Assembly: GCA_903834195.1 (NCBI GenBank)
Contig: CAILIB010000020.1
Location: 14,084 to 78,083 of the forward strand
Direction: 5' to 3'
Length of the DNA: 64,000 nt
DNA from: an uncultured Candidatus Berkelbacteria bacterium
GTDB taxonomy: Bacteria; Patescibacteriota; UBA1384; CAILIB01
How positions within the stretch are numbered: position 1 is the first letter of the stretch; each line of letters begins with the position of its first letter. Below, piece after piece: positions 5,333 to 54,790 of this stretch. The notes under the pieces are model-generated. The model had not been told where the DNA came from and did not search any database. It worked only from the letters and a program-made list of their open reading frames with translations. Made by a program: the position numbers and the translations under genes.

Positions 5333-6571
5333 ATGAGTCAAAGAAACGTTATTGTCGGTATCGATGTAGGCAGCACTAAAATTGCTACTACTATTGGTCA
5401 CATGCAGGAGAATGGTATCGATATCATTGGAGTTGGCTATGCCGCATCCAATGGACTTCGAAAGGGAATGGTTGTTGATATTGAAGAAACAGTATCTTCT
5501 ATCTCAGCCTCACTTGAAGAAGCTGAGCGCATGAGCGGACTACCAGTTACAGAAGCTGTGGTATCCATTGGTGGAATCCACATCCAATCTTCAGCTTCAA
5601 AAGGTGTAATTGCTGTTTCAAGCCCAAATGGAGAAATTACAGATAACGATGTACTTCGGGTACTCGACGCTGCACGCGCAGTAAGTGTCCCACCTAACCG
5701 TGAAATCCTTCACGCTCTCCCACGCAGTTACGCAATTGATGGACAATCTGGTATTAAAGACCCATTAGCCATGACTGGTATCCGCTTAGAGGTTGATACT
5801 CAGGTGATCAGTGGAGCAACCGCTCCAATTAAGAACTTGAATAAGTGCTTAGCTCAGGCAGGTGTAAATGTTACTGAAATGGTATTTACTCCACTTGCAG
5901 CAGCACGAGCAGTTCTTTCAAAGCGACAACGCGAAATTGGTGTATGTATCTTAGATATCGGTGGAAGCACAACGAGCTTCGCTATATTTGAAGAAGGTGA
6001 CGTACTTCATGCAGGAGTACTCCCAATTGGCGCCGCACACATTACAAACGATATTGCGATCGGACTTCGCACTTCTATTGATAATGCTGAAATTATCAAA
6101 GTTAAACACGGTTCAGCCCTTCCTGAAAAAATTGATCCAGACGTTGAAATTGATCTTGCAAAAATTGATAAGCATGAAGAAGGCAAAATTAACCGCAAAT
6201 ACGTAGCTGAGATCATCGAAGCCCGTATGCACGAGATTCTTACCATGGTCCGCGATGAACTTCGTAAAGTAGGCCGAGAAGGTACATTGCCTGCCGGAAT
6301 TATCCTTACCGGAGGAGGTGCAAAACTGGACGGCATTGTGGAAATGGCCAAACATGTTCTCAAATTGCCTGTACAGGTTGGGCAACTCACACATGATGTC
6401 TCCGGTATGGTTGACAACATATCCGACCCTCTGTATGCTTCAAGTGTCGGATTGATGCTTTGGGGTATGGAAGCTACAAATGCTTCCTCAAGCCACAAAC
6501 GCTCACATTCTAATGCCTTGGGGGGAGCATTGGATCGCGCAAAAACCTTGTTCAAGAATATCCTGCCGTAA
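5333..6571 (+). CDS. ftsA: Cell division protein FtsA
   Basis: An actin-like ATPase with N-terminus VGIDVGSTKIATTIG and with S(I/V)GG and ILTGGGA motifs. It is immediately followed by ftsZ. Confidence 0.9.
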   Translation: MSQRNVIVGIDVGSTKIATTIGHMQENGIDIIGVGYAASNGLRKGMVVDIEETVSSISASLEEAERMSGLPVTEAVVSIGGIHIQSSASKGVIAVSSPNGEITDNDVLRVLDAARAVSVPPNREILHALPRSYAIDGQSGIKDPLAMTGIRLEVDTQVISGATAPIKNLNKCLAQAGVNVTEMVFTPLAAARAVLSKRQREIGVCILDIGGSTTSFAIFEEGDVLHAGVLPIGAAHITNDIAIGLRTSIDNAEIIKVKHGSALPEKIDPDVEIDLAKIDKHEEGKINRKYVAEIIEARMHEILTMVRDELRKVGREGTLPAGIILTGGGAKLDGIVEMAKHVLKLPVQVGQLTHDVSGMVDNISDPLYASSVGLMLWGMEATNASSSHKRSHSNALGGALDRAKTLFKNILP

Positions 6572-6590: not shown

Positions 6591-7907
6591 ATGATGAATC
6601 GAAGTTCCGGGGCACGCACTCAGTTCACTCCTCAACATAACCCAGCTGGTCCAGATGGATACGCTGTTATTCGTGTTGTTGGCGTAGGCGGCGGAGGCTC
6701 AAACACAGTTCAACGAATGATAAACTCCAAAATGCGTGGAGTTGAATTTGTTGCAATTAATACCGATGCACAGGCTCTCTCTAATAATGACGCCTCGGTA
6801 AAAATTCAAATTGGTAAGGAAACCACGCGCGGTCTTGGTTCAGGAGCTGATCCTGAAGTTGGACGCCGTTCTGCTGAAGAGAATAAAGAAGAGATCTACG
6901 AAACCCTTAAAGGTTCCGACATGGTTTTCATTACCTGTGGTATGGGTGGTGGAACTGGTACAGGTGCATCTCCATTTGTTGCTTCAATTGCTAAAGAACT
7001 TGGTGCACTTACAGTAGGTGTTGTTACAAAACCGTTCGCTTTCGAAGGTCAACGCCGTCGTAAGGTTGCTGATTTAGGTATTCAGGATCTTAAAGAAAAC
7101 GTAGACACTCTCATTACAATTCCAAACGATCGTCTACTCCAAGTTATCGATAAGAAAACTTCTTTATTCGATGCCTTCGGCGTAGTTGATGATGTACTTC
7201 GCCAAGGTGTACAAGGTATTTCAGATCTTATCACTTTGCCTGGTATCATTAACCTCGACTTTGCTGACGTTAAAGCCATCATGCAAGATGCAGGTTCAGC
7301 ACTTATGGGAATCGGCCGCTCTTCTGGTGACAACCGCGCAATCGAGGCTGCTCGCTCAGCAATTGATAGCCCACTCTTGGAACTGTCTATCGATGGTGCC
7401 AAAGGTATTCTGTTCTCTATTGCTGGTGGAACTGACCTTGGTATGTACGAAATTGATGAAGCTGCTAAAGCAATTACCGAAGCCGCTGACGCAGATGCAA
7501 ATATTATCTTCGGTACCATTATCGATGAAGCCATGCAGGGCGAAGTTAAAATCACAGTTGTTGCAACTGGATTTGAACAAGAAACCAATAAGCAACAAGG
7601 TCGTCGCTTCGTTATTGGTGGTAACACTATGGGAATGCCAATGCAGCGCCCAAACACTCCAGAATACGGCCAACCAAGCACTCCACAGCAAGATCAGAAC
7701 CAATACGCTCCTCAACCACAGCAAGCGCCTGTACAGCCTCAGTACGCTTCTCCGTATGACCCAGCTCCTGTACGCCCTGATTTTAATCAGCAACCTCAAC
7801 CACTTCCGCGCTACCACACAGAGGCACCTCAACAGCGTCAACCTGAACCTCAGGGTGATGAAGAAGAACTTGAAGTTCCAACCTTCATTCGACGCAAACT
7901 TAAGTAA
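6591..7907 (+). CDS. ftsZ: Cell division GTPase FtsZ
   Basis: The tubulin signature [10 protein letters not shown] and the T7 loop NLDFADV are present, and the C-terminal tail is Q/P-rich. Confidence 0.95.
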
Positions 7908-14563: not shown

Positions 14564-14611
14564 TAAGGACCTGGCGTGTACGGAGAATGTTTGGTATAGT
14601 CATTATATGCA

Positions 14612-14770
14612 CAAATTAAAAGTCGCCTCACGGTAGGAATCATGCGTAAGTGCACCTACGGTGCACGTTCGATACTTTTAATTTGCGCATACACCTCCTT
14701 TCCTTAACAGGAGTCGCCTCACAGCTTGAACCATGCATACGTGCACCTACGGTGCACGTTCGATACTCCT
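14612..14770 (+). repeat. Two tandem ~56-nt direct repeats, each a nested hairpin (outer stem + inner GTGCACC/GGTGCAC hairpin)
   Basis: Repeat 1 (14621-14676) and repeat 2 (14712-14767) share AGTCGCCTCAC...ATGC..GTGCACCTACGGTGCACGTTCGATACT. Repeat 1 is flanked by a 12-bp perfect inverted repeat (CAAATTAAAAGT/ACTTTTAATTTG) and repeat 2 by AGGAGT/ACTCCT. Confidence 0.6.
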
Positions 14771-14818
14771 TCAAGCGAACTAATAAACACACAATATACC
14801 CAAGTTAGTACTCCCTAA

Positions 14819-22167: not shown

Positions 22168-25100
22168 TTATAATTCAATCTTTATTCCCTCTTCTAATGA
22201 GATAGGCTCACCTAACGTACTCATTAAGTGCACGTTTTGCTGTACATTTGGGAGCACTTCCCGCTCTTCAACGACTTGTGGGACGTTCGATGTATGTTCG
22301 GTTAGGGAAGGCAAGCTGGGGGAGTCATCAATAATCATCGGGACTAATTCTGATCCTTCCTCAACACCTCCATTCATCCCCTCAAGGCTCCTTTGCTGTT
22401 CCTTTTCAGCAGCTTTAGCAGCTCGACGAGCAAGAACATCAGATTCCTTTTCACCCAAATACCACCTGTTCCCTCCGCGTTGAGACACTTCCTTATATGC
22501 CCAGCCATCTATGACTTTGAGTGGCTTTTCACGGATCGGTCGACGTTCCCTATTCTGATCTTCCTGAACCTGGTTAACAGGTTCAATTATCGCTGCACTT
22601 GGAACAATTTGCTCAGGAACAACTACTTCTGGTGCAGAAACTACTCCCTGCTCTACTACTTCTTCAGGTTTGAGTCCCCTACTCGGCTCTACAACGACTG
22701 GCGGCGGCGTTGTAAATGTTCTCTGTTGTACAGGTTTAAATGGTGCATCAGGAATAACCACTGGACGTGGAGCTGCAACCTGTTGACGCTGCTGTTGATT
22801 TATGTTCGGTTTCTGTTCGTTATGATATGAAACAGGCTGGTTGAGGATTTGCGCTGCAATTTTTTGCGCCTCTTCTGCCTCACGTTTTCGCTTATACCCA
22901 GCAGTCTCATCTATAATATCTTCAACTTGCTCTCTAGGACGAGCAAAGTGTTGATGGGAATACTCAACTACCCTATCCCTAAAATTTGTATCAACTTTCT
23001 TTGGTGGTAATGTCATCGCTGAAAATGCCTGCGAAGCAACACCATCTACCAGCAACTTAATATAGACCCGAGCCATTTGCAGGTTCACCATATCATCAGG
23101 ACCAAATACAGGTGCAAATTCACGAGCTAAGGCTTCAGCATCTTTTGAACCAACACGGAAACAGATAATACTACCAACGTTACCAAAGACAGCCTCACGT
23201 ACTTCATCCGCCATCTGATCGATATACTGGTGAGCAATGGTTAAGCCAAGATTATACTTACGAGCTTCTGAGAGAATCGTCGCAAAAGAATCAGTTGCAA
23301 AGTTCTGGAACTCGTCTACGTACAAGAAACAGTCTGGACGCTGATCAAACGACACATCAGCACGACTCATCGCCGCAAGCTGTACACGTGTAATCATCAT
23401 TGTTCCAAGTAGTGCTGAATTGTCTTCCCCGATTTTACCCTTTGACAGGTTTACGACGAGAATTTTTTGCTCGTCCATCACTTGGCGAATATCAAAAGCA
23501 GACTTTGGCTGACCAACAATATTACGAATCAAGCTTGTTGAAAGAAATTGCCCAACCTTGTTCAAGATTGACCCCATTTCTTCAACCTGTTGTTTTTGCT
23601 CTTTGGCAGCCCATTCATTTTTCCAGAAATCGAGCACAACTGGATCTTTGATCTGTGGAATTACCCAGTTACGAAAACCAGGGTCGGTCAAAATACGTGG
23701 AATACCAAGCATAGTTGGATTCTCAGTATCGAGCAGGGCAAGTGTTGCATTTCGTAGGATATACTCCAAACGAGGTCCCCAAGAGTTTCCGAAAATCTTT
23801 TTAAGTGCACCAACGAATCCTGAAGCGATATTCCCCTTTTGATCTGGATGAGAAATATCGAGCACATTAAATGCAATCGGAAATTCGCGATCAGATGGAT
23901 CAAATACAATCGTATCTTTAATACGATGCTCTGGAACTGACTCAATCACTTTATCTGCAAGCTCTCCGTGCGGATCCACCACAATAACGCCACGACCCTC
24001 ATTAATGTCATCAATGATCATGTTCTCTAGCAGCGTTGACTTTCCTGCACCAGATTTACCAATGATATAGATATGACGCTTACGATCGTTCAATTTAATA
24101 CCAAACTCTTCAACGTGATTACGGAAATCAGTTTTACCAAGTACAGTAAGATCCATTGCAGGAACTTCACTACTCAACGGAACATTCGGTGGAGCTTCAG
24201 CTTTCTTACTACCGGCCCATGAAATTGCTCCACTTTCCACACTAGCAGCAGGGAAGTGATACACCGACGCAAGCTCTTCAATATTGAGCACATTCCCCTT
24301 CTTTTCGAATTCACGGGCAATGTACTGCAACCAACTTGGGTAGTGATCAATTTTAATCTCACCACTCTTGAACCCATTCAGGTTTGTAGTATTGTACTGC
24401 TTGAACGCAGCTAGCGTAGCTTGAATCCGTGCACGCGCACTATTCTCATCCGTACCGATTACAACTAAACGAAAAATAGTTGAGAACCCAAGCTTAGTAA
24501 TCTTTGATTCAATCCCTTTAAGCGCAGCTTCCTGGGGCGAAGATAACTTAGGTGGCTCCCCTGGTTTAGATTCCTCAAAACCAGTTCCCGGGCTAGCGAT
24601 TTCTCGAATTAACTTTACACTAAACCCTGCTGCTCGCATCACTGGATGAGGCTTTTTAGCACCAGGCGTCTTCCCTGCACGCATTGCACCAACGTGAGAC
24701 ACCCCTTTATTTTGCCAATCATCCCCTACTGGTTGAACAACCATTTGTAACCAAATTTGTTCCTTATTTTCAAGATTGTCCATTACAGCCATCAACCCAG
24801 CGAGTGGGTCAATATCAGAACTTGAATAGGTCTTAATTGGGTATACATCATCTTTGGTGAGCTGAATCTCGGCAATTGCTACGTGGAGACCTTCAAGATG
24901 TGCCTCAGCTGTGTAATCTGTAACTTGTTTTATTTGCAACTCGGGGTACTGCGCATAGAGCTGACCTTCAACAAACTCCCGCAACTGCAATGGTGTAAAG
25001 ACATAAAAGACAATTGAATCTTCTTTGGCGACAATCTCAAAAGAAACGTACTCCTGTACAACCTGATCACCCTTAAAGATTCCATGGAGAGCCGAAAAAA

Positions 25101-25227
25101 ACTGCTCTGCAGATGCAGGGCCTTTCTCATTCTTCTTAGGCACCTGAATTGCGAGCACAACAAAGCTCTGAGAGGCCAGCCAGTCAGCACGACGCTTGAG
25201 ATTTTTCGTACTCTTAAAGAGTGCCAT
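22168..25227 (-). CDS. TraD/VirD4-family (type IV coupling protein-like) P-loop ATPase, paralog 1, with ~390-aa unknown N-terminal domain and Q/P-rich C-terminal tail
   Basis: Walker A IIGKSGAGKST is followed by VVDPHGE and then VFDPSDREFPIAFNVLD (compare TraD LNPLDER). Walker B YVDEFQNF and ARKYNLGLTIAHQ...GNVGSIICFRVGSKDAEALAREF match a TraG-D_C-like domain. The N-terminal domain is homologous to that of the paralog at 25889-28393. Confidence 0.6.
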   Translation of the reverse strand: MALFKSTKNLKRRADWLASQSFVVLAIQVPKKNEKGPASAEQFFSALHGIFKGDQVVQEYVSFEIVAKEDSIVFYVFTPLQLREFVEGQLYAQYPELQIKQVTDYTAEAHLEGLHVAIAEIQLTKDDVYPIKTYSSSDIDPLAGLMAVMDNLENKEQIWLQMVVQPVGDDWQNKGVSHVGAMRAGKTPGAKKPHPVMRAAGFSVKLIREIASPGTGFEESKPGEPPKLSSPQEAALKGIESKITKLGFSTIFRLVVIGTDENSARARIQATLAAFKQYNTTNLNGFKSGEIKIDHYPSWLQYIAREFEKKGNVLNIEELASVYHFPAASVESGAISWAGSKKAEAPPNVPLSSEVPAMDLTVLGKTDFRNHVEEFGIKLNDRKRHIYIIGKSGAGKSTLLENMIIDDINEGRGVIVVDPHGELADKVIESVPEHRIKDTIVFDPSDREFPIAFNVLDISHPDQKGNIASGFVGALKKIFGNSWGPRLEYILRNATLALLDTENPTMLGIPRILTDPGFRNWVIPQIKDPVVLDFWKNEWAAKEQKQQVEEMGSILNKVGQFLSTSLIRNIVGQPKSAFDIRQVMDEQKILVVNLSKGKIGEDNSALLGTMMITRVQLAAMSRADVSFDQRPDCFLYVDEFQNFATDSFATILSEARKYNLGLTIAHQYIDQMADEVREAVFGNVGSIICFRVGSKDAEALAREFAPVFGPDDMVNLQMARVYIKLLVDGVASQAFSAMTLPPKKVDTNFRDRVVEYSHQHFARPREQVEDIIDETAGYKRKREAEEAQKIAAQILNQPVSYHNEQKPNINQQQRQQVAAPRPVVIPDAPFKPVQQRTFTTPPPVVVEPSRGLKPEEVVEQGVVSAPEVVVPEQIVPSAAIIEPVNQVQEDQNRERRPIREKPLKVIDGWAYKEVSQRGGNRWYLGEKESDVLARRAAKAAEKEQQRSLEGMNGGVEEGSELVPMIIDDSPSLPSLTEHTSNVPQVVEEREVLPNVQQNVHLMSTLGEPISLEEGIKIEL

Positions 25228-37089: not shown

Positions 37090-37614
37090 TTAAGCGGCCT
37101 TCGAGTCACGAACGGCAGAAAGCACGTTAACGAGACCACGAATGTTGCCAGCAAGTACGTTGACGAAGCCTGAGAGAGGAGCTTGAAGGGTTCCAACCAG
37201 CTGACCAAGAAGCTGTTCGCGACTTGGAAGCTTAGCAAGAGCTTCAACCTGAGCTGCGGTAACGAAATTACCGTCAACAATTCCACCGAGGACTTTTAGG
37301 TTTTCAATATCCTTTGTGAACGGCATAAGCAGACGAGCTGCAGCAACCGGATCAGCATAGGAGTAGATCAGCGCAAGTGGTTGATCAAGGAGTTCAGCAG
37401 GAACGTCAGTCTTTGTTTCTTCAAGGGCGCGCTTCAGGAGGCTATTTTTAGCAACCTGGAACTGGAGCCCGTGTTCGTAAAGACCATCGCGGATCTGCTC
37501 AATCTCATCAACTTTCACTGCCTGTGTACCAACCAGAACGACACCTTGTGAGCGTCCTAAACGATCGGTAAGTTTGGAAAGAATTTCTTCCTTCTGCACC
37601 CGCGTTTTTGGCAT
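37090..37614 (-). CDS. rplJ: 50S ribosomal protein L10
   Basis: [19 protein letters not shown]...[11 protein letters not shown] is present. The start is set at ATG 37614 because the ORF-track start at 37752 adds a non-homologous extension over the leader. Confidence 0.85.
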
Positions 37615-37623
37615 AGTGTTATG

Positions 37624-37692
37624 TTTGATACCCTCTTTGAGAACTGACTCACGACATGAGTAAGGGTTGAGGTTCCCAAAGAGGGTATCAAA
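37624..37692 (-). promoter_or_regulatory. Structured rplJ 5' leader: 16-bp perfect inverted repeat (TTTGATACCCTCTTTG / CAAAGAGGGTATCAAA) around a 37-nt loop
   Basis: The perfect inverted repeat spans 37624-37639 and 37677-37692. Its position immediately 5' of rplJ is consistent with an L10(L12)4 autoregulatory leader. The loop contains the CCTCAACCCTTAC motif also found in the rplA leader. Confidence 0.45.
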
Positions 37693-37907
37693 TTTCCGAG
37701 TTAATAAGGTAATAAAATAAAAAATTCGCTCAGAGACAGAGCGAAACATCACACAACTCGCGTTGATATGCGCCTCGGCAGGACTTCTTCCGTTAGGATG
37801 CCTACTGTCTCTGGTACAAAGATACTTTACCTGATTTCCAGGTTGAGGTCAATACTTGGGTAAAAAAATATGTTTGACCGGGGGTGCCGGCCAAACATGA
37901 AGCGGAT

Positions 37908-38438
37908 TCACTTCTTTTCCTTGAGTAATTGCTCGATGAACCACTCAAGTATATAACCCAGGTTCTCCGGATCCGCTTTCTGAACTGCAGCTATGGCAGC
38001 AAGCGGGAAGTACTCTTGAATAAGAGGATACCCCTCGTCACCGACGTGGTCGTCGACTTCAAAAACTGGGTATCCGACACTATTCAACCCTACTTTGAAT
38101 CTAGGATCGAAGAGTGTGAGCTCGGGCGGACCCTTAAGCCCTTGATTGAAGTTGAAGTGGTAGCAACGTACCGATTCGTCGCACAGAAAGATCAGGAACA
38201 AGCCATCCACCGATGATCCGTAAATCTTGTTGAAAAAAACACACGGATTCCTGGAGTAATTTTCTGGCCCCCATTGCGCAGAAGAATAATTTCCTACTAG
38301 AGCACTTTGTGCAACTTCCGGGGTAACTTCAACACACGACTGTTTCGGAAGCTTGCGAAGCAACTTCTCAATCGGAATGACAGCATTAACCGGCTCTTTC
38401 TTCCCTGACTGACGAACCTGCAGATATAAAGACATCAC
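37908..38438 (-). CDS. Hypothetical protein inserted within the ribosomal-protein cluster
   Basis: A 176-aa ORF with coding-like composition and no recognisable motif. Confidence 0.35.
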   Translation of the reverse strand: MMSLYLQVRQSGKKEPVNAVIPIEKLLRKLPKQSCVEVTPEVAQSALVGNYSSAQWGPENYSRNPCVFFNKIYGSSVDGLFLIFLCDESVRCYHFNFNQGLKGPPELTLFDPRFKVGLNSVGYPVFEVDDHVGDEGYPLIQEYFPLAAIAAVQKADPENLGYILEWFIEQLLKEKK

Positions 38439-38611
38439 ATTTCCTTCTCCCTTAACCCAGGAAGTGGGCTCCGTTAGGAGATTATCGAATATACCACAAG
38501 TAGTTCATTATTTCAATTAGAAACGCCTTATCAGATTGACAAATCTAGTAAATAATGGTTAAATAACACATTCGAAACGAACTTTCGACAACACGTGCTT
38601 TTAGGAGAAAA

Positions 38612-39217
38612 ATGAAAAAAATCCTCACATTACCCGCCGGAAACCCAGTGGAATTTCGTTGGACAAACAGGAAGGGTGTAAAAAAACGATTCCTGATTCC
38701 TGGTTCGCTTTGGGTGACCATCGTGACTATGTTACTTATGGCACTCACCTTCGCTTATGCCAAAACCCTAACCTGGCAAATCGGAGTAGGTGTAACCCTT
38801 ATGCTTCTGATCCATGAATTAGGGCACTTATACGCTGCTAAAAAGTGTGGATACTTGGCCAGTGTGCCGATATTCATACCATACCTCGGCGCAGCTGTAA
38901 TTTGTCCTCAGATTCTAAGAAGTCGCAATGAGGCGTACGTCGGCTATTACGGACCACTATTTGCAGCGATTGCGAGTATTAATCTGCTCCTGTTCACTAT
39001 CCTGTGGCCAGGACATCACCATGACGTCGCACTCGTAAATCAGGCGAGTTTGTCAGTTAACGTTTTCAACATGATCCCACTCAGGTTTCTCGATGGTGGA
39101 CGCATACTTGCGAAAAATGCTTCGCCGCGTCGACACCATGCAGATTGGGTCAGGTGCTATGTAATCCTGACGGTGGGTCAGATTGCATTGTGGGTTATTC
39201 AAGCATTCTACTACTAA
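38612..39217 (+). CDS. Small membrane metalloprotease, M50 (site-2 protease)-like
   Basis: The motif HELGH sits within a TM helix, a downstream FLDGGRIL (LDG motif) is present, and the protein has several TM segments. Confidence 0.55.
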   Translation: MKKILTLPAGNPVEFRWTNRKGVKKRFLIPGSLWVTIVTMLLMALTFAYAKTLTWQIGVGVTLMLLIHELGHLYAAKKCGYLASVPIFIPYLGAAVICPQILRSRNEAYVGYYGPLFAAIASINLLLFTILWPGHHHDVALVNQASLSVNVFNMIPLRFLDGGRILAKNASPRRHHADWVRCYVILTVGQIALWVIQAFYY

Positions 39218-39320
39218 CCTAACTAAAGCACGTGGTATTGAGTCGGTCCAAATGTATTGGGCCGGCTTTTTTTGTATACCAAAAACCCCGCCTTGCAGCG
39301 GGGTTTTCTCTCGATTCAGT

Positions 39321-40274
39321 TTAGAGCTGAACTTTTACACCAGGTCCCATTGTAGGAGCGAGTGAAACTGAAACTACCTTACCACCTTGGAGAATTGACT
39401 CCATAGTGCGGAAATTTTCAGCAATTTGCTCAGTCTTGAACGAAATTCGGCCAAGTGACATGTGAAGAACACCAGTTTTATCGGTACGATATTCAACACG
39501 TCCACCACTGATTTCTTTTGTAACTTTCTCGATATCTTCTGTAACTGTACCAGCTTTAGGAGATGGCATCAGACCTTTAGGACCAAGAAGCTTAGCAAAC
39601 TTAGCAAGCTTTGGCATTTGAGCAGGAGTTGCAATCAGAACGTCAAAGTCGAGCTTACCTGCAGCAATTGCTTCAATAGTTGCATCATCAGCAACAGCAA
39701 CTTTCTTAGTTTTACCTGTTCCGTGTGGAAGAACGATTGTTCCGCGAACACCTTCAACCTTAAGCTTTGCATGAAGTTCGATGGTACCATCAAACTTTGT
39801 AGTTGATGTCTTCTTTACAAGCTCAATCGCTTCTTCAAGTGGATACTGCTTGTTGCGTTCAACTAGAGCAACAACCTGACGATACTTCTTGCCGCGAAGA
39901 CGGAGTGGGTCAAGTTTCTTGGTTGAAACAGGCTCAGCAGTCTTACCTTCAGATACGCGCTTTGCAGCTGCTTTCTTAGCCTTTTCTGAAGTACTCTCAC
40001 GATTCTTGTGCTTTTTTTCACCTTCTTCTGCAACGATTTCAGCATCAAGCTCAGCAACATCTGCCTCAAGAGCTTCTTCTTCGTCAGTTACCAAAACCTG
40101 CTCGTCAGCTTCTAGCGCTGTAGCATTGTCGGTGTTCATAGCAGACATTTCTGCAGGAATAACATCGTCGGTATCGGTAATTTCGTCCATTACCTCATCC
40201 ATTGATGTGTTCTCTTCTAAATTCTGGTGAAGTGCGTCATGCAGTTCACTTGGGTCAAGTACTTCTTTGTCCAT
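39321..40274 (-). CDS. rplA: 50S ribosomal protein L1 with ~90-aa acidic N-terminal extension
   Basis: The C-terminal 230 aa match L1 ([14 protein letters not shown]...[14 protein letters not shown]...[19 protein letters not shown]). The start is set at ATG 40274, which is preceded by GGAGGT. The ORF-track start at 40340 is a TTG and would cover the leader hairpin. Confidence 0.8.
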
Positions 40275-40325
40275 TGGACCTCCGGTGGTAGTAACGCTCA
40301 GATTCTGAGCTCCCACAATTACGTT

Positions 40326-40390
40326 GATATACCTCTTCAAAACGCTGCCCGACGACGCGGTAAGAGTTGAGGGTTTTGAAGAGGTATATC
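40326..40390 (-). promoter_or_regulatory. Structured rplA 5' leader: 18-bp perfect inverted repeat (GATATACCTCTTCAAAAC / GTTTTGAAGAGGTATATC) around a 29-nt loop
   Basis: The perfect inverted repeat spans 40326-40343 and 40373-40390. The loop carries CCTCAACTCTTAC (mRNA sense). A second small hairpin, GCTCAGAATCTGAGC, lies between this element and the SD. It is a candidate L1 autoregulatory site. Confidence 0.45.
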
Positions 40391-40409
40391 AACTTCTTCT
40401 AATAAATTG

Positions 40410-40988
40410 TTATAAGTGGAACGTTTCAGTAGAAATCGTTCCGTATTTCAGCCACTCTACCAGGTTTGGCACGAGTTTGTCAATCACTACATCAACGGTT
40501 TTTGTGTCATGAGCAGGCATACGTTGCAGTACATAGTCCTCAAGTGCAGGTAAATGTGCAGCAAGTTCTGCTTTTTGCTCATATAACCCCACTCCAACCC
40601 GTACCCGCCAGAAATCATCTGGCCCTAGTGCTGTAATAATTGATTTCCAGCCATTATGACCCCCATCCCCGCCGGACTGGCGAATACGTACGCTTCCAGG
40701 AGCAACATACACATCGTCAGCCACTATACAGAGCTGCTCAGGCTTTAAATCATAATAATCAGCCAGAGTACGTATCGGCTTTCCCGAGTTATTCATAAAC
40801 TGCTGTGGCTTCACCAGAAAACACTTCTCACCTTCAATATTGGTTTCAATTACCAAACTATCATGGAGGCGCTTCCACGTTTTCTCACCTAAGGACGTAG
40901 CAACTGCATCTAAACAGGCAAAACCGATGTTATGCCGCGTTTTATCGTACTGTTCCCCTGGATTACCCAGGCCGATCAGCGCACGCAT
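40410..40988 (-). CDS. pth: Peptidyl-tRNA hydrolase
   Basis: The N-terminus MRALIGLGNPGEQYDKTRHNIGF and the block HNGWKSI are present. Confidence 0.85.
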   Translation of the reverse strand: MRALIGLGNPGEQYDKTRHNIGFACLDAVATSLGEKTWKRLHDSLVIETNIEGEKCFLVKPQQFMNNSGKPIRTLADYYDLKPEQLCIVADDVYVAPGSVRIRQSGGDGGHNGWKSIITALGPDDFWRVRVGVGLYEQKAELAAHLPALEDYVLQRMPAHDTKTVDVVIDKLVPNLVEWLKYGTISTETFHL

Positions 40989-54456: not shown

Positions 54457-54775
54457 GTTGACATACACCCTCCCGTATGGTACAAGTAGAACATACTCGT
54501 TCCTTGCAATAAGGGTCCGTGTATCTATCTACGCCGCCAACGATCTTTGCCCCTCCTTTGGATCGGGTCCCTCGGGACCGGCACGTAGATAGATACACGG
54601 ACCTTTTATATTATATCAAAGCATGAACTTTAACATTTGATTGAATTTCAAGGCAGAACTGAGCATTCGACTGAGGTGTACTATTACATTGAAGGAGAAG
54701 CGGAAGTTCTAACGATGAAATTCGGCAAATGTTAAAGTTCATAATAGAAAAAGCCCTGATTACTCAGGGCTTTTT
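54457..54775 (+). ncRNA. Candidate structured non-coding RNA/regulatory region between rplK and mfd (two long perfect inverted repeats + terminator)
   Basis: A TTGACA hexamer lies at 54457-54462. A 20-bp perfect inverted repeat (54514-54533 and 54584-54603, GGTCCGTGTATCTATCTACG) encloses an inner GGTCCC/GGGACC hairpin and is followed by TTTTATATT. A 17-bp perfect inverted repeat (54623-54639 and 54726-54742, ATGAACTTTAACATTTG) encloses 86 nt with nested GAATTTCA/TGAAATTC and AGAACT/AGTTCT stems. The strand and RNA identity are not established. Confidence 0.3.
54748..54775. terminator. Bidirectional rho-independent terminator after rplK (AAAAA-GCCCTGA-TTAC-TCAGGGC-TTTTT)
   Basis: A perfect 7-bp stem is flanked by an A5 run and a T5 run. 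It lies 16 nt downstream of the rplK stop. Confidence 0.75.
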
Positions 54776-54790
54776 CTAATTCAGAGAGAT

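Follow-up and report, generated by a model that had tools for sequence, protein, structure and literature searches.

We analyzed a 64-kb stretch of DNA (64,000 nucleotides, nt; hereafter the window) from an uncultured Candidatus Berkelbacteria bacterium, in which the genes for the stalk proteins L1 (rplA) and L10 (rplJ) are each preceded by a long hairpin in the 5' untranslated region (UTR). The genes are arranged in the order prfB-like, ybaB, pth (40410–40988), rplA, M50-like peptidase, a hypothetical gene for 176 amino acids (aa), rplJ, rplL, MBL-fold and tgt, all on the minus strand except for the M50-like gene on the plus strand, and rplK is found 14 kb off, behind secE-nusG. The hairpins, called J (before rplJ) and A (before rplA), are composed of the following parts:

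37624–37692, minus strand: hairpin element J, between the terminator of the L10 leader and the rplJ start codon
37692–37672, minus strand: 5' arm of J, UUUGAUACCCUCUUUGGGAAC
37671–37645, minus strand: loop of J, 27 nt
37644–37624, minus strand: 3' arm of J, 21 nt
37660–37672, minus strand: conserved motif of J, CCUCAACCCUUAC, unpaired and on the 5' side of the internal loop
37647–37661, minus strand: apical hairpin of J, ACUCA[UGUCG]UGAGU, recognised by comparing the three known members by eye
40323–40393, minus strand: hairpin element A, located 3' of the pth stop codon and 5' of the L1-binding-type structure
40393–40373, minus strand: 5' arm of A, GUUGAUAUACCUCUUCAAAAC
40372–40344, minus strand: loop of A, 29 nt between the 21-nt arms
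40343–40323, minus strand: 3' arm of A, 21 nt
40360–40372, minus strand: conserved motif of A, CCUCAACUCUUAC

An inverted-repeat search gave a stem of 21 pairs including one G·U for J and one of 21 perfect pairs for A, the latter followed by a C·C mismatch and 2 further pairs. A sequence-only reading of the same DNA had described paralogous hairpins in the 5' leaders of both genes, with perfect inverted repeats of 16 and 18 base pairs (bp) and a common 13-mer in the loops. The repeats are present as described, but the arms are longer, at 21 nt each, and that of J contains the G·U pair. The paralogy was confirmed, and a local alignment of the two loops beats 300 of 300 shuffles. The 13-mer was recovered as well: both loops open with CCUCAACYCUUAC on the mRNA strand, and the motif has no other exact match in the window. 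Both elements fold as independent hairpins of about −34 to −35 kcal/mol, alone as well as in folds of the whole UTRs, where J, A, the terminator of the L10 leader and the L1-type site (see below) appear as separate modules. Each folds about 6.3–6.5 standard deviations better than dinucleotide shuffles (0 of 200 as good), and the window contains no more than four inverted repeats whose arms reach 17 nt, J and A included. The 3' end of J is separated by 9 nt from the rplJ ATG at 37614, while A follows the pth stop codon (40410) after 16 nt, with the rplA ATG at 40274. Because the J and A regions are 100% identical in a second, independent assembly (ENA ERZ27313292, locus L099), the hairpins are not assembly artefacts. 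Judged by their sequences, J and A are two paralogues of one small structured RNA module, restricted to the lineage, which consists of an outer helix of about 21 bp, a single-stranded bulge C(C/G)UCAACYCUUR, an apical hairpin of 3–5 bp with a YGUCRU loop, and a short 3' bulge.

Relatives for comparison were recognised via a clade-specific acidic N-terminal extension of L1 and, because this extension is distinctive, were easily spotted. It occupies about 39945–40274 in the window (HDPLxQNxxEN...AEESAMNTD) and is common to dozens of Patescibacteria homologues of 290–330 aa; the few named homologues of the window L1 are labelled as Patescibacteria group or as soil or uncultured metagenome-assembled genomes. 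Besides the window, the material comprised 5 kb extra of the same genome (69 kb in all) and about 1.2 Mb of other fetched DNA, in which the spacers in front of rplA were compared across about 13 lineages and those in front of rplJ with 7 other loci. A clear homologue of the hairpin was found before rplA at a single locus, L081 (73% L1 identity; UUUUUCGAUAGUAUCUG[GAAAACCGUCAACCCUUGCUCAUGUCAUGAGUCGCGUUUGA]CAGGUACUAUCGAAAAA), whereas about 11 relatives are without it, and the pth–rplA spacer measures 41–61 nt without the element versus 126–135 nt with it. Hairpin-less spacers of 41–61 nt are present in L082/83, L084, L085, L086-88, L221, L222 and the P0002 gene table, and in L090–L093 and L095 the L1-type site lies right behind the pth stop codon. 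The loci L089 and L094 (63% identity) contain a hairpin with a stem of 19–24 bp at the same spot before rplA, the loop of which is not significantly similar to those of J and A. The rplA hairpins of the window, L081 and L089 all end 5–6 nt before the L1-type site. Before rplJ, the hairpin is absent from all 7 other loci examined and was found in the window species only; the upstream region of rplJ in every relative contains a promoter, an L10 leader, a terminator and a spacer of 13–66 nt without a Shine-Dalgarno sequence. The module is patchily present among the relatives. In the rplJ spacer of one hairpin-less relative (L221, about 6940–6955) we noticed a perfect 12-nt palindrome, AGATAGCTATCT, which is like the GATA...TATC bases of the stems and could be a deletion scar, a seed or a coincidence.

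Searches for additional members were extended to other sequence collections. The full L1 alignment yielded patterns that were too generic when used against genome contigs, the best loci being 51% identical and mostly from Firmicutes and Saccharibacteria, and a scan of metagenome contigs with the clade-specific N-terminal region of L1 gave 8 loci with no member of the J/A family. With an nhmmer profile of the core, no third copy was detected in the 69 kb of the genome and none in the 1.2 Mb of fetched DNA except L081. A genome-wide family of palindromic repeats, one option of the sequence-only reading, could not be shown from this material. Viral contigs contained no match to the exact J-type core and only chance matches to a loose core pattern, one recurrent match lying inside a phage open reading frame (ORF), and a blastn search with element J against plasmids and phages returned no match.

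Among the three members J, A and L081, the pairing is kept while the sequence varies. In an ungapped comparison of the 21-pair stems of J and A, 12 pairs are identical, 8 are changed on both sides and 1 is changed on one side, leaving 42 of 42 cells paired. The arms of J and A differ at 9 of 21 positions, and those of L081 differ further, its stem consisting of 17 bp, a tandem G·A and another 4–6 bp. The apical mini-hairpin is compensated in the same manner (ACUCA[UGUCG]UGAGU in J, CCG[CGUCGU]CGG in A and CUCA[UGUCA]UGAG in L081), and the 5' bulge C(C/G)UCAACYCUUR is kept in all three. On the mRNA strand, the imperfection of the J stem is a G·U and that of L081 a U·G pair, which correspond to A·C mismatches on the opposite strand. 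The compensated changes and the wobbles in mRNA sense are not what one expects from repeat copies in neutral decay and, as far as three sequences can tell, speak for selection acting on a sense-oriented RNA fold. Both J and A are oriented in sense within 5' UTRs of ribosomal protein genes, in a window with 56 intergenic gaps.

Both genes are also preceded by other structured RNAs and by promoter-like sites:

37090–37614, minus strand: rplJ (L10), starting at ATG 37614, with no Shine-Dalgarno sequence at normal spacing
37709–37832, minus strand: L10_leader RF00557, a full-length Rfam match of 46 bits versus a gathering score of 44
37745–37725, minus strand: intrinsic terminator of the L10 leader, with hairpin J on its 3' side
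37824–37852, minus strand: promoter-like site of rplJ, TTGACC, 17 nt, TAAAGT, 5' of the L10 leader
39321–40274, minus strand: rplA (L1), 317 aa, with the clade-specific acidic N-terminal extension of about 110 aa
40285–40316, minus strand: L1-binding-type mRNA structure, GUGG-GA-[GCUCAG AAU CUGAGC]-GUUACUA-CCAC, with GUGG/CCAC as P1 and the inner hairpin as P2
40454–40483, minus strand: promoter-like site within the 3'-terminal part of pth, with 10 of 12 matches (TTGACA, 18 nt, TG-n-TAGAGT)

The idea that the hairpins themselves serve as autoregulatory leaders for L1 and L10 is not supported, with an L10_leader lying upstream of J and an L1-type site downstream of A. The autoregulatory leader proper of rplJ is this L10_leader, and hairpin J is a separate element. 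The L1-type site is a 32-nt structure that lies 6 nt 3' of hairpin A and is followed by the Shine-Dalgarno sequence GGAGG (40283–40279) and the ATG. It was found before rplA in 13 of 13 clade loci read, hairpin carriers or not, with equivalents at 5961–5992 in L081 and 5963–5992 in L082 and others in L085, L086, L089, L090–L093, L095, L221 and L222. In the alignment of these 13 loci, 95% of the cells are paired and both sides are altered in 5 of 8 pairs, values that 0 of 500 shuffles equalled; the compensatory changes in P1 lead from GUGG/CCAC to AUGG/CCAU and GUAG/CUAC. Rfam was blind to this site even at E-values up to 10. L1-interacting mRNAs of several phyla contain a small stem and a bulge with a G-A pair and an unpaired A directly before rplA, a structure which mimics helices H77-78 of the 23S rRNA (PMC3616713), and the structure at 40285–40316, which agrees with this description, is likely the real autoregulatory site of rplA. 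Because both genes already have ordinary feedback RNAs, the hairpins are additional: the module was added beside the L1 site and the L10 leader and replaces neither of them. If the promoter-like sequence inside pth is used, transcription would start near 40447, placing hairpin A about 54 nt into the rplA 5' UTR; all relatives share this sequence, which, however, is also coding in them.

The translation starts of the two genes differ in a further respect. There is no Shine-Dalgarno sequence at normal spacing before rplJ in the window (37615–37630, minus strand), L081, L082, L085, L086, L089, L221 and L222, in contrast to the GGAG(G) before most rplA genes of the clade, and the spacer from attenuator to ATG of rplJ varies between 13 and 66 nt across the clade. 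The public L10 call in L099 (12526–13185, equivalent to 37090–37752 on the minus strand of the window) is 219 aa long and runs from an upstream GTG through the L10-leader terminator and hairpin J. It is a mis-annotation, the cause of which is a frame that stays open by chance.

Comparison with known RNAs did not provide an identity for the hairpins. A cmscan at E-values up to 10 over 37500–40500 gave no RF00557 match on either of them, the model matching 37709–37832 instead, so that the search for an Rfam L10 leader suggested along with the sequence-only reading was negative for both. Like the L10 leader, J is a structured RNA in the 5' UTR of rplJ and belongs to the same transcript, but it sits 3' of the terminator and has neither a kink-turn nor GCCGAGG. 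Similarly, A shares the rplA 5' UTR with the L1-interacting mRNA structure, but it is a 71-nt insert without the short stem with a G-A bulge, and the uninterrupted 21-bp stems of both hairpins lack the GGGAG...ACCAC signature. No other family of Rfam 15, ribozymes included, matched the hairpins at the gathering threshold over the whole window or at E-values up to 10 over 37500–40500, except for spurious miRNA precursors of 17–18 bits versus gathering scores of 180–249. Against the 16S and 23S rRNA of E. coli, the best match was that of J with 23S positions 2593–2607 (14 of 15), with p ~0.005 before correction for 32 tests; it is located away from the sites of L1 (H76-78) and L10 (H42-44), is not significant after that correction and is probably due to chance. 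It involves the loop and 3' arm of J (37645–37659, minus strand; GUCGUGAGUCAGUUC) and a universally conserved 23S segment (GUCGUGAGACAGUUC, L220), and A and L081 keep only GUCRU...CAG/CG of this stretch. On this comparison, the hairpins are not convincing as rRNA mimics. The sequence-only reading had named missing rRNA likeness together with missing conservation in related genomes as speaking against it, and this is largely what was found, given the unconvincing match to E. coli rRNA, the single rplA homologue in about 13 lineages and the 0 of 7 for rplJ.

These results bear directly on a shared cis-regulatory site, where one protein or RNA would bind the bulge and the apical loop and co-regulate L1 and L10, or where the hairpins would mimic the rRNA sites of these proteins. 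Such a site would agree with an asymmetric loop motif that is conserved while the stems covary, with the location of both copies in 5' UTRs of functionally linked stalk proteins, and with the fixed distance of 5–6 nt between the rplA hairpin and the L1 site. Nevertheless, we consider it improbable, because both genes already possess canonical autoregulatory RNAs, neither an L10_leader match at E-values up to 10 nor a GGGAG/ACCAC signature was found, the sole 14/15 match to E. coli rRNA (23S 2593–2607) falls outside the sites of L1 and L10, and the element is missing from most relatives.

Some other identities were rejected as well. Neither hairpin was called by a terminator scan, and a run of U, as an intrinsic terminator would have, follows neither of them on either strand. 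A promoter inside the hairpin lacks a usable -10 element, an ECF (extracytoplasmic function)-type promoter was rejected from the sequence, and the reading frames of a conceivable leader peptide are inconsistent between the copies. Sequestration of the Shine-Dalgarno sequence was discarded since that of rplA lies 40 nt 3' of hairpin A and no relative has one before rplJ.

Long hairpins recur in the clade at comparable places. In the clade DNA examined, 8 of them have a stem of 17 bp or longer with no more than 2 G·U pairs, and 7 of these 8 flank rplK, rplA, rplJ or rplL. A rough estimate by intergenic length gives P = 0.001–0.01 for this clustering, although the loci were sampled around rplA and counts of hairpins near stalk-protein genes are biased by this choice. 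The loops of these hairpins are unrelated, which suggests that a long duplex itself is of use near stalk-protein genes. Examples with stems of 18–24 bp are located before rplA at the same spot as A (L089 9870–9952 and L094 5636–5718), between the rplA terminator and the rplJ promoter (L082 6995–7064) and directly 3' of the rplL stop codon (L092 8686–8747). The L089 loop contains AGUCGGUAACAAGG, which resembles 16S rRNA at about 1492–1505 by eye (p ~0.1, not significant).

RNase III processing stems, as present in the rnc and pnp leaders and in rRNA precursors, are perfect duplexes of about 21–23 bp or two turns, the minimum target being a duplex of about 22 nt, and cleavage by this enzyme in 5' UTRs can raise or lower the stability of an mRNA (PMC5371410). 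With 21 bp in J, 21+2 bp in A, and 17 bp, G·A and 4–6 bp in L081, the elements reach the duplex length of RNase III substrates (about 20–22 bp or more), and they resemble such stems further by their location in the UTRs of highly expressed translation genes and by a stem that is free in sequence with the pairing kept. They differ from them in the conserved loop motif, which is no known RNase III determinant. What stays the same throughout is a perfect duplex, about two turns long, in the UTR of a highly expressed mRNA, and we therefore tentatively favour accessory, lineage-restricted processing or stability stems of the RNase III substrate type as an explanation for the hairpins. The element would act as an RNA on the mRNA strand, and its two-turn duplex would be a determinant of processing or stability, most likely as substrate of an RNase III-type double-strand-specific endonuclease. 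Cleavage or binding at A may detach the rplA message from the upstream RNA derived from pth, and at J the coding part of rplJ from the attenuator leader, thereby setting the 5' end and with it the half-life or translatability of two stalk-protein mRNAs. In E. coli, the rplJL-rpoBC transcript is processed by RNase III between rplL and rpoB, a site that the long stems near these genes bring to mind.

Several observations weigh against this explanation. Cleavage is something we purely infer, no rnc gene is present in the window, and the scanned or listed window proteins yielded no RNase III domain. The argument for the mRNA strand consists of only 2–3 wobble pairs. The element is dispensable, as about 11 related lineages, among them one at 73% L1 identity, do without it before rplA and 7 of 7 other loci before rplJ, and the enrichment of long hairpins near stalk-protein genes is drawn from the biased set of loci mentioned above. 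A plain RNase III stem does not need the conserved bulge motif, and neither the bulge nor the fixed spacing of 5–6 nt to the L1 site is accounted for by a processing stem. Finally, the similarities among the members are mosaic, with the J loop nearest to the rplA copy of L081 and the J stem nearest to A. This pattern fits mobility or gene conversion better than the simple vertical inheritance of a regulator.

Simple vertical inheritance of one orthologous leader fails to explain this mosaic of three sequences, which is accounted for by duplication or gene conversion together with frequent loss. For the favoured processing stems, we assume that they probably spread by duplication or copy-and-paste in the old rplA–rplJ neighbourhood and would be easily lost, long palindromes being prone to deletion. 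The mosaic also counts in favour of the main rival explanation, a selfish or nearly neutral palindromic insertion of the REP or MITE type, copied at the DNA level into spacers and affecting the mRNA only incidentally. It would also account for the clean presence or absence in relatives with spacers of 41–61 versus 126–135 nt, the two copies in one genome, the occurrence of other long hairpins, with loops unrelated to J and A, in similar spacers of related genomes, and the location in a hot spot of gene gain. The rplA–rplJ spacer indeed contains the M50-like peptidase gene and the 176-aa ORF in the window (37908–39217), msrB in L081 (7014–7370), the D-Ala-D-Ala ligase gene ddl in L084 (1088–1975) and a 377-aa ORF in L089 (11037–12170), and there is no gene between rplA and rplJ in L082, L085, L086, L221 and L222. 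As in REP/BIME, Correia/NEMIS and MITE-like repeats, J and A are short palindromic intergenic inserts that are present or absent among close relatives and occur in more than one copy per genome. However, only two copies were seen in 69 kb and no more in the 1.2 Mb of fetched DNA outside L081, and all three members are oriented in sense to the downstream ribosomal protein gene, in whose UTR they lie. The arms, which would be the part recognised by a transposase, vary while the asymmetric centre is conserved, and 8 compensated pair differences with 0 broken pairs are unlike neutral decay. A classical MITE was rejected, as the flanks show no target-site duplication, the arms are variable and no transposase is encoded nearby, the 176-aa ORF beside rplJ having no Pfam match. 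We rate such a selfish or nearly neutral insertion as possible but rather unlikely. REP/BIME, Correia/NEMIS and MITE-like elements can affect the stability of flanking mRNAs, and the neutral-palindrome and processing-stem explanations are not mutually exclusive.

The variable gene content between rplA and rplJ is equally relevant for a function at the DNA level, in which the hairpins would be a recombination site, an attC-like cassette or an operator palindrome connected with the genes gained there. In direct orientation, the two copies bracket a segment with rplA, the M50-like and hypothetical genes and the L10 leader, their stems share the GATA...TATC bases, and a 12-nt palindrome (AGATAGCTATCT) is found in the rplJ spacer of L221. 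An integron attC site is likewise an imperfect palindrome of 60–140 bp with a variable centre that can fold as a single strand, but J and A are off the cassette boundaries and do not flank the inserted genes, and no integrase is encoded in the window. An attC identity was rejected because the R'' (RYYYAAC) and R' (GTTRRRY) boxes are neither conserved nor present in the right order and the perfect stems have no extrahelical bases; the ends of the elements read GTTGATA...TATCAAC in A, TTTGATA...TATCAAA in J and TTTTTCGATA...TATCGAAAAA in L081. A distance of 50 bp between half-sites is unlike a normal operator, and the wobble pairs favour an RNA from one strand, so a DNA-level site is very improbable.

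The conserved core enclosed by sequence-free, perfectly paired stems, as in rRNA precursor stems, could alternatively be the source of a small RNA, with the loop (12-nt 'seed' and mini-hairpin) released to act in trans, or a boxA/boxB-like Nus-factor antitermination signal consisting of YCUUAC and the mini-hairpin. Element A contains CUCUUAC followed by a small hairpin, and CUCUUAC presumably matches part of boxA of lambda nutR. The corresponding CCCUUAC of J and CCCUUGC of L081 depart from boxA, no complementary target for a small RNA was found in the window, and three members do not permit statistics; we regard both variants as far-fetched. Somewhat less remote, though still quite doubtful, is a mobile, structure-selected RNA module whose 12-nt bulge and mini-hairpin are bound by a factor or released as a small RNA, which would link the expression of L1 and L10 and be one of a wider, unrecognised class of long-stem elements at stalk-protein genes. 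Such a module would amount to an L1–L10 linkage in a Patescibacteria lineage in which rplK, rplA and rplJ no longer form one cluster.

The element belongs to the broad class of stem-loops in UTRs and intergenic regions, within which it is uncharacterised and restricted to its lineage. If J and A are processing or stability elements, they would represent a second, optional post-transcriptional layer over the universal feedback by L1 and L10 in an uncultured lineage with a reduced genome, and such layers would be quickly gained and lost. If they are merely tolerated palindromic inserts, the finding is an ordinary one. In either case, the annotation of the locus is corrected, as the real regulatory RNAs here are the L10 leader known to Rfam and the small L1-type site that Rfam does not detect.

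Two more long-stem structures were noticed elsewhere in the window. The first has a row of its own:

54511–54606: hairpin with a 23-bp stem and a GC-rich, structured loop of 48–50 nt, between the rplK terminator (54745–54778) and mfd

In the second assembly (L098 14060–14155) the sequence of this hairpin is the same, and its loop is unrelated to the J/A family. The second is located at 14606–14780 (plus strand) between a gene for a UvrD/PD-(D/E)XK helicase-nuclease and rmuC, where a core of about 55 nt, CGCCUCAC...GUGCACCUACGGUGCACGUUCGAUACU, occurs twice in tandem; it had no Rfam match at E-values up to 5. The first copy of this core lies inside an inverted repeat of 18–21 bp, a combination of conserved core and long flanking stem as in J and A. 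None of the loops of L089/L094, L082, L092 and the window hairpins at 54.5 and 14.6 kb is significantly similar to the J/A family. The window additionally codes for a 1019-aa protein (22168–25227, minus strand) with TrwB/TraG-type domains of type IV secretion coupling proteins, which adjoins ORFs of 1718 and 834 aa without Pfam matches, one of them belonging to a family with DUF8128 in relatives.

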